Shown in pieces: positions 49,001 through 61,000 of a stretch of 64,000 bases of DNA; the first letter of the stretch is position 1, and each line of letters begins with the position of its first letter. Made by a program: the position numbers. The DNA comes from Escherichia coli. Its GTDB lineage: Bacteria > Pseudomonadota > Gammaproteobacteria > Enterobacterales > Enterobacteriaceae. The stretch is taken from the NCBI RefSeq assembly GCF_051903065.1, contig NZ_CP178439.1; one strand, written 5' to 3'.

Positions 49001-52000
49001 TCAGATTCTTCCGTTTGTGAGATACCGATTTTGTTAGACATTTTTTTTAGTATCTTTCCGAGCATGGACACACAGGCATCTAGACTTAACGATGTTGAAA
49101 TTTTGGTCGTATTAAAATCCTCCTGCGAAAGTGAAATCATCCATGTATTATCTTTATGATAGTCGGTAATATAAATAAAATGAGATGTAAAAGGCGTTGA
49201 GTGATTGAACTCTCCTAAGTTCCATCCATACTGACTCACTGTATTTGAGCTAAGTTCTTTGTCGGTAATGTTCATAATTCATACCTTTCGATAAAGTCTG
49301 TAATGATAATTAGCTATCTCAAAGGACCAGAACAACTCTTGAAATAACCACACTCGAAGAATTTATCATATTGAACACCCCTACCTAATAACCTTGCCGA
49401 CTTAATAAATCACAATAGCCCTCCCCTGACATTTTAAAATGCTACTTGAATTTTTGATAGCTTATGGTTGTTTTATGTTCTTTGTGATACGCATATGTCA
49501 TCTTCTCTTTCCAGTACCAATCTTGTAGATCCTGCAAGTCTAGCCCATTTTTCTCACGTATGCTTTCGTGTAATTCGCTAAGCGCGAGTTTATCATTAGG
49601 TTTATAAATGGCTAATTTTTCTTCAAATAAATCCAGCCAACGTTTCCCCATCTTACGACGCAAAACAAACACCATCGTGATAAATGTAATGAAATGCACA
49701 GCAATTAGTTCCAACTTATGCGATTGCTGACCAGATAAAATTACTATTGTAACAACAGGGATGGCCGTATATAAAGCAATCAAAGCGACCATAAGTTGGT
49801 ATGGTTTTTCCCGTATTACCATGTTCATGGGTAAACCAGAGGACGCTACTGCTTGCCAAAATCTTAAAGGGGAGCCCGCAGAATTCGGAAAAAATCGTAC
49901 GCTAAGGTTTTCCGGGCATCCGTAAGGGCCGAAACTTCCCGTCTTCCAGTCTGCGGCTCTGCCGCCAGACGTAATCGCCGGTTAGGTTGATGTGCTCCCA
50001 GCCCAGCGGCGACAGGAATTGCAGCAGCTCGCCGTCCACCGGCTTGCCGGCCTCGACCAACCCCTGGGTGGCGCGTTCCAGGTACACCGTGTTCCACAGC
50101 ACGATAGCCGCCGTCACCAGGTTGAGGCCGCTGGCCCGGTAGCGCTGCTGCTCGAAGCTCCGATCCCTGATTTCCCCAAGGCGGTTGAAGAACACCGCCC
50201 TGGCCAGCGAGTTGCGCGCCTCACCTTTGTTCAGGCCGGCATGCACGCGGCGGCGCAGTTCAACACTTTGCAGCCAGTCCAGGATGAACAGCGTGCGCTC
50301 GATCCGGCCCAGCTCGCGCAGGGCCACGGCCAGTCCGTTCTGGCGCGGGTAGCTGCCGAGCTTGCGCAGCATCAGCGAGGCGGTGACGGTGCCCTGCTTG
50401 ATCGAGCTGGCCAGGCGCAGGATGTCGTCCCAGTGGGCACGCACGTGCTTGATGTTCAGGGTGCCGCCGATCAGCGGGCGCAACGTCGGGTAGGCTTGCA
50501 CGCCCTGCGGCACGTACAGCTTGGTTTCGCCGAGGTCGCGGATGCGCGGCGCGAAGCGGAAGCCTAGCAGGTGCATCAGGGCAAAGACGTGATCGGTGAA
50601 GCCGGCCGTGTCGGTGTAGTGCTCCTCGATCCGCAGGTCGGACTCGTGGTACAGCAGGCCGTCGAGCACATAGGTGGAATCGCGGACGCCGACATTCACC
50701 ACGCGGGTGCTGAACGGCGCGTACTGGTCGGAGATATGGGTATAGAACAGCCGTCCCGGCTCGCTACCGTACTTCGGGTGGCACTGTTGCAAATAGTCGG
50801 TGGTGATAAACTTATCATCCCCTTTTGCTGATGGAGCTGCACATGAACCCATTCAAAGGCCGGCATTTTCAGCGTGACATCATTCTGTGGGCCGTACGCT
50901 GGTACTGCAAATACGGCATCAGTTACCGTGAGCTGCAGGAGATGCTGGCTGAACGCGGAGTGAATGTCGATCACTCCACGATTTACCGCTGGGTTCAGCG
51001 TTATGCGCCTGAAATGGAAAAACGGCTGCGCTGGTACTGGCGTAACCCTTCCGATCTTTGCCCGTGGCACATGGATGAAACCTACGTGAAGGTCAATGGC
51101 CGCTGGGCGTATCTGTACCGGGCCGTCGACAGCCGGGGCCGCACTGTCGATTTTTATCTCTCCTCCCGTCGTAACAGCAAAGCTGCATACCGGTTTCTGG
51201 GTAAAATCCTCAACAACGTGAAGAAGTGGCAGATCCCGCGATTCATCAACACGGATAAAGCGCCCGCCTATGGTCGCGCGCTTGCTCTGCTCAAACGCGA
51301 AGGCCGGTGCCCGTCTGACGTTGAACACCGACAGATTAAGTACCGGAACAACGTGATTGAATGCGATCATGGCAAACTGAAACGGATAATCAACGCCACG
51401 CTGGGATTTAAATCCATGAAGACGGCTTACGCCACCATCAAAGGTATTGAGGTGATGCGTGCACTACGCAAAGGCCAGGCCTCAGCATTTTATTATGGTG
51501 ATCCCCTGGGCGAAATGCGCCTGGTAAGCAGAGTTTTTGAAATGTAAGGCCTTTGAATAAGACAAAAGGCTGCCTCATCGCTAACTTTGCAACAGTGCCG
51601 ACAAGAGTACGCCGCAGCTCGATCTTTTGGCTCGTGTCGAACGAGAGCTACCGGTGCGGCTCGACCAAGAGCGCACCGATATGGTTGTTTGCCATGGTGA
51701 TCCCTGCATGCCGAACTTCATGGTGGACCCTAAAACTCTTCAATGCACGGGTCTGATCGACCTTGGGCGGCTCGGAACAGCAGATCGCTATGCCGATTTG
51801 GCACTCATGATTGCTAACGCCGAAGAGAACTGGGCAGCGCCAGATGAAGCAGAGCGCGCCTTCGCTGTCCTATTCAATGTATTGGGGATCGAAGCCCCCG
51901 ACCGCGAACGCCTTGCCTTCTATCTGCGATTGGACCCTCTGACTTGGGGTTGATGTTCATGCCGCCTGTTTTTCCTGCTCATTGGCACGTTTCGCAACCT

Positions 52001-58000: not shown

Positions 58001-61000
58001 ATGCAGCTTTGCTGTTACGACGGGAGGAGAGATAAAAATCGACAGTGCGGCCCCGGCTGTCGACGGCCCGGTACAGATACGCCCAGCGGCCATTGACCTT
58101 CACGTAGGTTTCATCCATGTGCCACGGGCAAAGATCGGAAGGGTTACGCCAGTACCAGCGCAGCCGTTTTTCCATTTCAGGCGCATAACGCTGAACCCAG
58201 CGGTAAATCGTGGAGTGATCGACATTCACTCCGCGTTCAGCCAGCATCTCCTGCAGCTCACGGTAACTGATGCCGTATTTGCAGTACCAGCGTACGGCCC
58301 ACAGAATGATGTCACGCTGAAAATGCCGGCCTTTGAATGGGTTCATGTGCAGCTCCATCAGCAAAAGGGGATGATAAGTTTATCACCACCGACTATTTGC
58401 AACAGTGCCCTTCATCATTATGAATATGAAAAAGCCGAATGCGGCGACTACCACATTTATCCCCGGGGCTATGGACGCAGCAACTTTGCAGGGCGCAATC
58501 GAAAAAGCTCGCGGGGCCTAAAGTTACTTTCACTTTTGATGAGTACGGCCATGCCGGTCATGGCCGCTACGCTTTTACAACGAGTAATTCATCCCAGCGG
58601 GTCGTATATCTCGGTGATAGCATGGCCTGTTTCATACGAAAATCCTGTTGAATGCCTTCCCCCAGCAAAAACAGAGCTCCGCGCTTTTCTTTATTGAACC
58701 GGTCCATAACTTTCATCAGTGCCTGACTGCCAGGCCTGGCCGGGCGCTCATCAAACAGGCTGAGTTGCTCTGTGCCGTCAGTCATAGCGGAGAGCATTAC
58801 CCCAGCTTTCGCATACGCTATCCCGGGTTTGTAAATGCGGTTCAGGATGGTCATGGCTGCATCAACCAGATCGCGGGTGTCCTGTGTAGCGGTAAGCGGC
58901 TCGATACCACAATTGCTGTAGCGGTTTTCACCTTGCGCATAATTGCTGCTCTGAATGAAGACTGTGATTTGACGGGTCCACGAGCCATCCTTGCGCAGCT
59001 GCTCTGCCGCCCGGGCGGTAAAAAATGAAACTGCCTCATGTAGCTTGCCTATCTCATTAAGGCGCTGACCAAAACTTCTGGAAACGATAATCTGTTGCCG
59101 GACAGGAGGGGATTCATGCAGCCGGAAACATGGTTCGCCATGCAGTTCCCGCCAGGTACGCTCGATTTCAACGCCAAAGCTTTTACGTAAAAAGCGAACG
59201 TCGCTATTATAAAAATCACCGGCAGTGATGATCCCGAAAGCCGACAGGCGTTCACTGATCTTTTGACCAATACCCCATATTTCTCTGGTACTGATAAGGC
59301 CCAGGAGCTTCCTGATCCTGGCCTGATCAGTCAAAACTACAACCCCGCCTGTAGCTGCCCATCGTTTGCTCGCATAGGTGCATAATTTAGCCAGGGTTTT
59401 GGTGCTTGAACACCCCACACCACAGGTAAGGGACAGATTATGAAGAAGTGTACTTCTGATCAACCGGCCGTAATCTTCATAATCTATTATCTTGTTCATG
59501 TTTTTCAATAACATGAAATTTTCATCTATGCTATATCGACTCGATTGAGGCGCGAAGCTTTCCAGCGTTTCATGGAAGCGATTTGAGTAGTCTTCATACA
59601 AAGTAAAGTTAGAGCTCCGGACTTCGATCTGGTGTTGCTGAATCAAATCCCTGCACTTAAAAATTGGGGTCCCACGCTTAATACCAACGCTTTTAGCCAG
59701 TTTATTCATTGCAATGACGGACGAATCGTTATTGCTGGCTATGATGAGCGGCTTTTTTGCCAGCTTGGGATCCATCGCACACTCAAATGCCGCATAGGCC
59801 CCGTTAATATCAACGTGCATGTACATGGCTAAACTGATTCAGTGCAAAGGTGACGACGCCCCATATCTCAAGGGATTCGGGATTTACACGTATCGGCTTA
59901 TAGGCTGGATTAGAAGGCATCAAAAGCAGCTCAGGATACGTGTGTAAGATCTTTACCGTGAACTCTCCATCCACCAGCGCAACGACGATAGAGCCGTGTC
60001 GTGCCGTTAAAGACCGATCCACAACCAGAATAGCGCCATCATTGATACCGGCATTGATCATACTGAGGCCCGCCGCCCTGACAAAGAAGGTTGAGGGGCG
60101 GTTACGGACTACATATTCATGCAAATTTAATTCATTATCTTCATGCCCGGCGCACGGACTCATCACTCCACAGCTCAGTAAATCACTGAAAAAAGGTGCC
60201 ATTTCGTAAGGCTTGTTGCTAATGTGCTCAAGGATAACAGACATAGCTACACTCGAATTCTCATACTGTATGTATAAACAGTATTGCGAGTTACAGAGAA
60301 AAGATCAAATCTCTCCGGTAACGCTATCGAGCCTGACGAAAAATTAAGCTTTGTCACAAACACCAAAAACCATCTTTTACCGATAATGGCGAGCTGGCCT
60401 ACGAAGAAGGTATACAAGCTAGGATGAAAGGATTCTGATGCCCCTCCCACCAAATTTTTTATCTCCTGAAGACCAGGCTGAGTACGATGCTTATATGTCA
60501 AGATTCAGCGAGATAAATCACTATTATGATTATCACACTGTCCCCGTGATTGACTGGTTCTTTAAACAAGCAACCGAGGCGTTGCATCACGAACTATGGA
60601 TACCGGCCTGTACGAGCTTCCTGAACGGGATTGAAACATCACTCATGGTTACGTTGAAGTCGCTGATGCTGAAACCAACAGTTAACGATCAGCATGCAGC
60701 TCCTGAGCTGGTGGACTTGGAGGGTATCTCCGTAATGAGTAATGCCTTACTGAGAAAGGCCAAGCAGGAAGGGGTGCCGGTAGAATTACTTTCATTTCCA
60801 GCCGAGCAGGATATGTTGGTTAAGGTAGCAGCCGGGAGAACACCTGAAGCAGAAATTGTCAGGCTGAGAAACAACCTATGCCATGGCAACATTCTGGAGT
60901 TTATCATGTCTGTTGATATCGGTACTTCAGGACCCATACGTATTTTTACGCCTGAATGCTGTCGTGAACTGGCGCATGAACTTTCGTCCATTTCCAGGAA

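Follow-up and report, generated by a model that had tools for sequence, protein, structure and literature searches.

Two oppositely oriented pieces of a Tn1721 transposase remnant adjoin IS26-v1 copies in an IncHI2-type multiresistance region of Escherichia coli

It was found that two pieces of a single Tn1721 transposase remnant lie in opposite orientation in a 64-kb stretch of Escherichia coli DNA (contig NZ_CP178439.1, hereafter the window), each adjoining an IS26. The window is part of the multiresistance region of an IncHI2-type plasmid. A sequence-only reading had described a Tn1721 tnpA split by IS26 copies through a single IS26-mediated inversion. The split into oppositely oriented fragments is borne out by the coordinates, the profile matches, and relatives in which the pieces are contiguous, and the inversion is supported. 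Four points had to be amended, two of which are given first. Rather than a full tnpA, the split gene is tnpA′, the naturally 5′-truncated copy that Tn1721 carries at its right (IRRII) end, and thus no N-terminal part has been lost at this locus. Moreover, the inversion is not isolated, as a second in-place inversion was found at 58410-61955. The features are as follows.

49869..49906, 38-bp terminal inverted repeat (Tn1721 IRRII, GGGGAGCCCGCAGAATTCGGAAAAAATCGTACGCTAAG), outer end at 49869, adjoining IncHI2 backbone
49902..50779, minus strand, Tn1721 tnpA′ relic, C-terminal part (tnpA nt 2090-2967, with the stop codon)
50780..51599, plus strand, IS26-A, an IS26-v1 (Tnp26 G184N); its IRR side keeps the ancestral IS26/strA junction
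within 51600..52789, plus strand, truncated strA (aph(3'')-Ib), profile positions 160-267 of 267
about 51953-52789, plus strand, complete strB (aph(6)-Id)
52816..52896, Tn5393 terminal IR end, 3′ of strB
52897..53069, 173-bp spacer separating the Tn5393 end from the Tn1721 tet module, present also in pGD0503Z13 and pVE-F10_1
53070..56769, Tn1721 tet module, 1 to 4 SNPs relative to its relatives
53369-54019, minus strand, tetR(A)
54125-55324, plus strand, tet(A)
55356-56240, minus strand, pecM/EamA
56378-56770, minus strand, annotated isochorismatase-family ORF
56770..57589, plus strand, 5′ part of the tnpA′ relic (tnpA nt 1212-2031)
57590..58409, minus strand, IS26-B, an IS26-v1; both flanks are new junctions
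58410..61955, plus strand, second inverted segment, 100% identical to pVE-F10_1
58410-58521, dsbA 3′ remnant
58567-59826, minus strand, umuC
59810-60244, minus strand, umuD
61956..62775, plus strand, IS26-C, an IS26-v1; ancestral backbone/IS26 junction on its IRL side, intI1 remnant on its IRR side

A profile search of the minus strand at 49869-50779 found the C-terminus of a Tn3-family transposase (NF033527, positions 684-954 of 954, E 5e-140), and the plus strand to the left of IS26-B carries the middle of the same transposase (positions 384-662, E 6e-101). The tnpA numbering used here is that of the full tnpA in pA2312-KPC. The two fragments do not overlap and are nearly adjacent parts of one element; inverting the segment between IS26-A and IS26-B nearly rejoins them, as had been proposed. 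Exactly 58 bp are missing, corresponding to tnpA nt 2032-2089 (TCCTCCGATGGCCAGCGCTTCCGCGCGGGTGGCCGGGGCGAGAGCACCGGGCACGTCA; the interval was read in pHS13-1-IncHI2 and pVE-F10_1). Thus, the inversion has to be supplemented by at least one deletion, and the sequence-only reading was right to imply one. Of the fragment coordinates given there, 49869-50779 and the end at 57589 stand. The proposed start at 56705 does not; nucleotide homology to the full-length tnpA begins at 56770, and the preceding 65 nt are an open frame only. The C-terminal piece starts with ACCCGAAG (tnpA nt 2090-2097) and lies, as a reverse complement, on the IRL of IS26-A at 50779/50780 (junction J1). The 5′ piece ends with CGACCTCA on the IRR end of IS26-B at 57589/57590 (junction J2).

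Both fragments are 99.9-100% identical to the contiguous tnpA′ of relatives, and the C-terminal piece is 100% identical to pVE-F10_1. The pieces are contiguous in thousands of plasmids: one place covers at least 80% of the joined query in 3,474 records, and the top matches span 1,988 bp in the record against 1,930 bp in the joined query. This contiguity rules out an origin of the fragments from different Tn3-family elements. An origin from a full-length tnpA was also ruled out, since nt 1212 is the natural 5′ boundary of tnpA′ and the IR adjoins the IncHI2 backbone at a site that it also occupies in many relatives.

The genes between IS26-A and IS26-B are those named in the sequence-only reading: a truncated strA, strB, the Tn5393 IR end, tetR(A), tet(A), and pecM. 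Hypothetical genes are also present within 58410..61955. The 81 bp at 52816..52896 were read directly from the sequence, and their length and identity as the Tn5393 IR were assigned after PMC9019673. According to Allmeier et al. (1992), as relayed in PMC5736529, Tn1721 consists of Tn1722 and a tet region with a truncated tnpA′ and IRRII. The Tn1721 tet region was assigned here by its structure, as described in PMC5736529. A 5′-truncated transposase copy and the 38-bp IR (IRRII) come after tetR(A)-tet(A)-pecM, as they do in Tn1721, and in relatives tnpA′ runs unbroken from nt 1212 to the stop codon and the IR. The IR occurs once in the window, where none is expected by chance, and its junction with the backbone is common to many IncHI2 plasmids. 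In contrast to Tn1721, only the tet-region half is present, and its tnpA′ relic is further split by IS26. No IRRI was found at the boundary between the spacer and the tet module. With a single IR in the whole window and no N-terminal tnpA homology adjoining the fragments, a functional Tn1722 module (IRL, tnpR, full tnpA, and IRRI) was not found at this locus. The Tn1721 sequence here is a remnant, not a mobile Tn1721.

IS26 is an IS6-family element of 820 bp with 14-bp terminal inverted repeats and a single 234-aa DDE transposase, Tnp26. IS26-A and IS26-B are each 820 bp in length and 100% complementary to each other, and IS26-C is an identical third copy. All three start with GGCACTGTTGCAAA and end with TTTGCAACAGTGCC, their ORF matches NF033587 (E 4e-83), and they are thus IS26, with G184N marking the variant IS26-v1. 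The window holds nine IS26 copies, and five copies besides these three are standard IS26. The 8-bp flanks are CTTCGGGT and GACAAGAG for IS26-A, CGACCTCA and CTTCATCA for IS26-B, and CTTTGCGT and CACTGATC for IS26-C. They do not match one another, directly or as reverse complements, which agrees with the earlier statement that no matching flanks exist at the four junctions. Since a missing 8-bp duplication is expected after intramolecular events, it is no argument against IS26 identity. When all nine copies were compared, one flank match was found, a direct CAATTTCT pair around 6575-11969, which is unrelated to the inversion. BLAST matches running 12-18 bp past the IS26 ends at 50768 and 5403 were judged to be chance extensions.

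In the E. coli IncHI2 plasmid pVE-F10_1 the region is uninverted and runs from dsbA-umuCD through a single IS26 and strAB-tetRA-pecM-tnpA′-IRRII into backbone. It is 100% identical to the window at 29249-50779 and 58410-61955, and differs from 51600-57589 at 4 of 5,990 positions. I simulated three IS26 events on pVE-F10_1 in silico: one inversion with ACCCGAAG as its target, another that flips dsbA′-umuCD, and an adjacent deletion of 66 bp. The product corresponds to window 42838-62775 (19,938 bp) without any indel; it differs by 10 substitutions, and the GG>AA change of IS26-v1 accounts for six of them.

The most plausible history, and probably the correct one, is that copies of one ancestral IS26 donor inverted strAB-tet and dsbA′-umuCD, with a small deletion in addition. 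The immediate ancestor would have had a single IS26 between the dsbA-umuC-umuD backbone and truncated strA-strB-Tn5393 end-tetR(A)-tet(A)-pecM-tnpA′-IRRII. This IS26 may have been, or may have become, the hyperactive G184N variant IS26-v1, acting within its own molecule. An attack on ACCCGAAG in tnpA′ in the inverting ('trans') mode would have flipped the 6-kb strAB-tet block and created a second, inverted IS26. An attack on the other side, at CTTCATCA in dsbA, would have flipped the 3.5-kb dsbA′-umuCD segment and created the third copy. An IS26-associated deletion of 66 bp at the IRR end of the central copy, comprising the 58 bp of tnpA′ and one 8-bp target copy, would have given the junction now seen at 57589 and removed the inverted 8-bp signature. 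It may have been of the adjacent type, or it may have taken out DNA lying between two direct IS26 copies a short distance apart. I infer both the order of these events and the copy-in (replicative) route rather than recombination.

An inverted IS26 pair surrounds the flipped segment, the halves of the target lie on the IRL and IRR ends, and pVE-F10_1 is a relative in which the order is unflipped and only one IS26 is present. The old junctions (backbone/IRL and IRR/strA) are on the outer copies, IS26-C and IS26-A, while both flanks of IS26-B are new, as expected from two trans events of one donor. Thus, IS26-B is the pivot of both inversions, that of the strAB-tet block and that of dsbA′-umuC-umuD, the latter bounded by IS26-C. 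Furthermore, the three copies are identical IS26-v1 elements while the five other copies in the window are standard. On the other hand, the nearest relative has a standard IS26, not IS26-v1, at the ancestral site. The same 8 bp in inverted orientation were not found at the two new junctions of the strAB-tet block (CTTCGGGT versus CGACCTCA, with 58 bp of target absent). The unmatched flanks and the 58-bp loss indicate that the locus is not a clean one-step inversion product. Comparison of the flanks revealed no inverted 8-bp target pair at either inversion, and the sequence would suit homologous recombination as well as replicative transposition. The predicted partner of the dsbA event (IS26/TGATGAAG and the dsbA 5′ part) is not beside IS26-C, where the intI1 remnant lies instead, and further events must therefore be assumed. 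A dsbA 5′ part adjoining IRR as ...TTTGCAACAGTGCC/TGATGAAGCCGGGTGTGCC, an inverted 8-bp copy, would indicate a replicative origin of the second inversion.

Are these junctions found in other plasmids? J1 is present in pYZ22CS094_2 and pT18, and the partner junction predicted for a primary hit at ACCCGAAG (...CACGTCAACCCGAAG/IRR) is present in pA2312-KPC. In these KPC-2 and tet(A) plasmids, IS26 lies at ACCCGAAG in a Tn1722 tnpA, at the same junction nucleotide and in the same orientation relative to tnpA as here. However, their junctions are in the full-length tnpA/IRRI copy and involve a standard IS26, whereas the present ones are in the IRRII-side relic and involve IS26-v1. J1 occurs elsewhere with a standard IS26 and in an IRRI context; thus, recombination might have brought J1 in from elsewhere, instead of its being formed at this locus. 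No contiguous match to J2 was found in PLSDB, 5,426 complete E. coli genomes, or GTDB species representatives (an exact 40-mer in the last), and PLSDB also lacks the IS26/dsbA junction (J3). Neither an intermediate nor a sibling plasmid turned up in the databases searched. A search of PLSDB for the partner junction predicted with CGACCTCA as the primary target gave no contiguous match, 27 of 27 full-coverage matches consisting of two separate pieces, and CGACCTCA was rejected in this role. A bolder idea, which I consider doubtful, is that IS26 recurrently uses ACCCGAAG as a target, with separate hits and not inheritance behind its occurrence in KPC-2, tet(A), and IncHI2 contexts, and that a single hyperactive IS26-v1 copy firing in both directions made the double in-place inversion.

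Other plasmids contain the two halves expected from a simple IS26 insertion at ACCCGAAG, which also suits a different scenario. A separate IS26 may have entered tnpA′ at ACCCGAAG, with an 8-bp duplication or by recombination with an IS26-ΔTn1721 element, after which RecA-dependent recombination flipped the segment and the 58 bp were lost by adjacent deletion or direct-copy recombination. Inverted repeats of 820 identical bp are good recombination substrates, and both IS26 recombination and replicative events have been reported in IncHI2 plasmids (PMC9019673). This scenario seems rather unlikely, though it deserves consideration; it takes at least as many steps as the replicative route. Had an incoming IS26-v1 recombined with a resident standard IS26, one GG and one AA copy would also be left, whereas all three copies are AA; this argument is weak, since IS26-v1 may have been present in the ancestor already.

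The orientation depends on correct assembly across the 820-bp repeats, of which the 64 kb contain nine. If the assembler mispaired IS26 junctions across these repeats, or if the culture is a mixture of flip-flop isomers, there would be no true inversion. The order would then be backbone, tnpA′ C-part, IS26, tnpA′ 5′ part to strA (uninverted), IS26, umuDC-dsbA′, IS26, and intI1 remnant, which amounts to no more than an IS26 insertion in tnpA′ accompanied by the loss of 58 bp. Worked out by hand, this pairing uses exactly the same six junction sequences, and no other record in the databases searched has J2 or J3 to confirm the present arrangement. Still, no positive sign of mis-assembly was seen and such arrangements are commonly real in long-read IncHI2 assemblies (PMC9019673), which makes this explanation improbable. 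Long-read verification of the gene order between the IS26 copies is nevertheless advisable. Unrelated truncations, in which an IS26-bounded strAB-tet unit already cut at nt 2031 was imported beside a resident tnpA′ cut at nt 2090, would fit the preference of IS26 translocatable units for insertion beside an existing IS26 (PMC9602291) and the independent circulation of J1, but are very improbable: two independent breakpoints would fall within about 66 nt of the 1,756-nt relic in only ~7% of cases (own estimate), the block differs at 4 of 5,990 positions from a near-identical relative and keeps its IS26/strA junction, and the neighbouring umuDC segment follows the same pivot logic.

The rearrangement favoured here, two inversions by one IS26 donor with a small deletion, is of a routine, well-described IS26 kind and is already known biology. 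Intramolecular replicative (copy-in) transposition of IS26 in trans is known to invert DNA (He et al. 2015, mBio, PMC4471558). Those inversions likewise have an inverse IS26 pair around the flipped segment, the halves of the target gene on IRL and IRR, and an unflipped relative with a single IS26; in contrast, their hallmark inverted 8-bp pair is missing here and the target has lost 58 bp. For IncHI2 plasmids with this strAB-tetAR-ΔTn1721 block, inversions and adjacent deletions by IS26 are documented, as is the activity of IS26-v1 (PMC4471558, PMC9602291, PMC9019673). Plasmid pOYZ4 and the chromosomally integrated Salmonella MRCP, of the same plasmid family, have the IS26-v1 - strA/B - tetA/R - ΔTn1721 block with separate ΔTn1721 tnpA fragments, and inversions and deletions mediated by IS26/IS26-v1 were reported for them (PMC9019673). 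Their tnpA fragments are 1,789 and 848 bp in length (PMC9019673), whereas those described here measure 820 bp and 878 bp, the latter without counting the IR, and the present breakpoints (tnpA nt 2031 and 2090, and dsbA) differ from theirs.

No function was gained by the rearrangement; tnpA′ was already dead, and strB and tetR/tet(A) are intact. IS26, here as the G184N variant, keeps reshuffling the IncHI2 resistance region while the resistance gene content remains unchanged. The breakpoints at tnpA nt 2031 and 2090 and the dsbA site CTTCATCA are usable as lineage markers for plasmid tracking. If the recurrent targeting of ACCCGAAG and the firing of a single IS26-v1 in both directions were true, the locus would be a natural record of IS26-v1 target choice and local hopping.

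In the region on either side of three IS26 copies, here called IS26-A, IS26-B and IS26-C, it was found that a Tn1721-type transposase gene lies in two pieces of opposite orientation, as laid out below.

49869-49906, left of IS26-A: Tn1721-type 38-bp inverted repeat, the single copy within the window
Between this repeat and IS26-A, minus strand: C-terminus of a Tn3-family transposase (NF033527 profile 684-954 of 954)
50780-51599, plus strand: IS26-A, 820 bp
IS26-A to IS26-B: truncated strA, strB, Tn5393 IR end, 173-bp spacer, tetR(A), tet(A), pecM
Left of IS26-B, plus strand: middle of the same transposase (NF033527 profile 384-662)
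57590-58409, minus strand: IS26-B, 820 bp
IS26-B to IS26-C: dsbA 3′ remnant, umuC, umuD, hypothetical genes
61956-62775, plus strand: IS26-C, 820 bp
Right of IS26-C: intI1 remnant

The three copies are identical to one another and belong to a total of nine IS26 in the whole window, of which one is truncated.

The two fragments were joined in silico (1,930 bp) and used as a PLSDB query. At least 3,474 records cover at least 80% of the query at one place, and the best matches span 1,988 bp of the record. Comparison with pHS13-1-IncHI2 and pVE-F10_1 revealed that exactly 58 bp, TCCTCCGATGGCCAGCGCTTCCGCGCGGGTGGCCGGGGCGAGAGCACCGGGCACGTCA, are missing from the window. The full-length tnpA of pA2312-KPC (ATG at 4954 of locus L007), reconstructed as 2,967 nt (988 codons and a stop), gives the following numbering.

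tnpA nt 1212-2031: window 56770-57589, plus strand
tnpA nt 2032-2089: the missing piece, no window counterpart
tnpA nt 2090-2967: window 50779-49902, minus strand

Thus, the split into two opposed, IS26-adjoining fragments proposed by the sequence-only reading is real, and inversion would nearly rejoin tnpA as it had stated, with the reading frame unbroken over the 58-bp gap. Its start of the plus-strand fragment, 56705, is corrected to 56770: homology to full-length tnpA begins there, so the earlier start is an open reading frame artefact.

The attribution to a Tn1721 transposase also stands, but the gene is not an intact tnpA cut by IS26. In relatives, pecM is followed directly by a stretch that runs from nt 1212 through the IR and terminates at the IncHI2 backbone. 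It is known that the Tn1721 tet region closes with a naturally truncated transposase copy (tnpA′) and the inverted repeat IRRII (PMC5736529). The split gene is this tnpA′ with IRRII, and thus was a dead remnant before IS26 acted; the loss of the N-terminal 40% of tnpA is unrelated to the IS26 rearrangement. Neither IRRI nor Tn1722 was found when IR copies were sought over the whole window. The tet module starts at the exact point where the missing IRRI would end, and a 173-bp segment (52897-53069) separates it from the Tn5393 IR end. This segment is also present in pVE-F10_1 and pGD0503Z13, while pR18.0287_259k has 807 bp of tnpA and IRRI in its place. In pGD0503Z13 (L002, 12495-13953), IS26 lies within tnpA′ at another position, with the same 88 bp of tnpA′ (equivalent to window 57006-57093) on each side, which looks like recombination between an IS26-truncated upstream tnpA copy and tnpA′.

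The unrearranged comparator is the E. coli IncHI2 plasmid pVE-F10_1 (NZ_AP027947.1), whose order is dsbA-umuC-umuD-hypotheticals, one IS26, strA remnant-strB-tetR-tetA-pecM-tnpA′-IRRII, backbone. It is 100% identical to window 29249-50779 (21.5 kb) and 58410-61955, and has four substitutions against 51600-57589. Relative to the IRRII-side backbone, the strAB-tet block and the dsbA′-umuCD block are both flipped in place. The ancestral junctions backbone/IRL and IRR/strA are now on the outer copies, IS26-C and IS26-A, and the central IS26-B has new junctions on both flanks. The proposed IS26-mediated inversion is therefore upheld for the strAB-tet block; what it lacked is a second, adjacent inversion also using IS26-B. 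Window 1-1867 (backbone near hns and IS26) is also 100% identical to pVE-F10_1. At 1868-29248, about 12 kb of that plasmid are replaced by 27 kb that carry mph(A)-mrx-mphR and aac(3)-IId, along with a Tn3-family tnpA and further genes. The replicon is therefore a derivative from the pVE-F10_1 lineage with a heavier load.

Three IS26 events were applied to pVE-F10_1 in silico. First, IS26 would enter ACCCGAAG (tnpA nt 2090-2097) by an intramolecular copy-in of the inverting kind. Next, 66 bp, namely the 58 bp and one target copy, would be lost beside the central IS26 at its IRR end; the same IS26 would then make an inverting copy-in into the dsbA site CTTCATCA. The product differs from window 42838-62775 (19,938 bp) by no indels and ten substitutions, six of which stem from the GG>AA change that all three copies have at IS26 positions 613-614. 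The model expects TGATGAAG and the dsbA 5′ part right of IS26-C; an intI1 remnant was found there instead, so that further IS26-associated insertions must be located beyond the window end.

The order of events was assessed from the junctions. J1, the junction of IS26-A with the C-terminal part of tnpA′ (50779/50780; IRL|ACCCGAAG...), is also contiguous in K. pneumoniae pYZ22CS094_2, in IRRI-side tnpA, and in P. mirabilis pT18, and its exact partner (...CACGTCAACCCGAAG|IRR) is present in K. pneumoniae pA2312-KPC. ACCCGAAG is thus a documented IS26 target in tnpA. The partner predicted for CGACCTCA as primary target had no contiguous match in PLSDB. J1 was therefore taken as primary and J2, the junction of the tnpA′ 5′ part with the IRR of IS26-B (57589/57590), as secondary and deletion-derived. 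An equally short path starts from a pre-existing IS26 at ACCCGAAG, with a trans event into CGACCTCA and loss of one IS26 and 74 bp between two direct copies. No other record with J2 was found in PLSDB, among complete E. coli genomes or among GTDB representatives, nor any with J3, the IS26-B/dsbA junction at 58410, in PLSDB; an intermediate is thus lacking. An inverted 8-bp pair would be proof of replicative inversion (PMC4471558). None was found at the IS26 flanks, as the sequence-only reading had reported for the four junctions, and copy-in thus looks the same as homologous recombination between inverted IS26 copies. Finally, a different pairing of these six junction sequences gives the uninverted order, so that the orientation depends on correct assembly across 820-bp repeats.

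Four copies are of the variant IS26-v1 (Tnp26 G184N), namely IS26-A, IS26-B, IS26-C and the one at 11150-11969, while five other window copies and the single IS26 at the corresponding site of pVE-F10_1 are standard. IS26-v1 has a higher cointegration activity (Pong et al. 2019, as cited in PMC9019673), and both the block IS26-v1-strA/B-tetA/R-deltaTn1721 and inverse intramolecular replicative transposition have been described in IncHI2 plasmids (PMC9019673). The three identical copies may hint at duplication from a single donor.

Other footprints were found in the window. At 6575-11969, two minus-strand IS26 (standard at 6575-7394, IS26-v1 at 11150-11969) surround a segment including aac(3)-IId. 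The whole unit is bordered by the 8-bp direct repeat CAATTTCT, as is characteristic of copy-in insertion of a pseudo-compound transposon or translocatable unit. Another IS26 (5421-6202, 782 bp) is truncated at its IRR end; it is separated by 372 bp from the full copy at 6575, which has the opposite orientation. Within a 946-bp perfect inverted repeat (16327-17272 and 28306-29251) is a transposase fragment of IS2-like type (IS3 family); one arm adjoins an N-terminally truncated Tn3-family tnpA (17314-19863), and the other reaches into the IS26 at 29249 at its IRL end. This repeat could be the trace of a further inversion or duplication. Two directly oriented IS26 copies each have a class 1 integron 5′-CS/intI1 remnant at their IRR end (30069-31018 and 62776-63359), with the second remnant cut back by another 353 bp.

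Both inversion and adjacent deletion by IS26 are well-established behaviour (PMC4471558, PMC9602291, PMC9019673), and every component is 99.9-100% identical to known elements. The rearrangement is real and, apart from its use as a lineage marker, ordinary.
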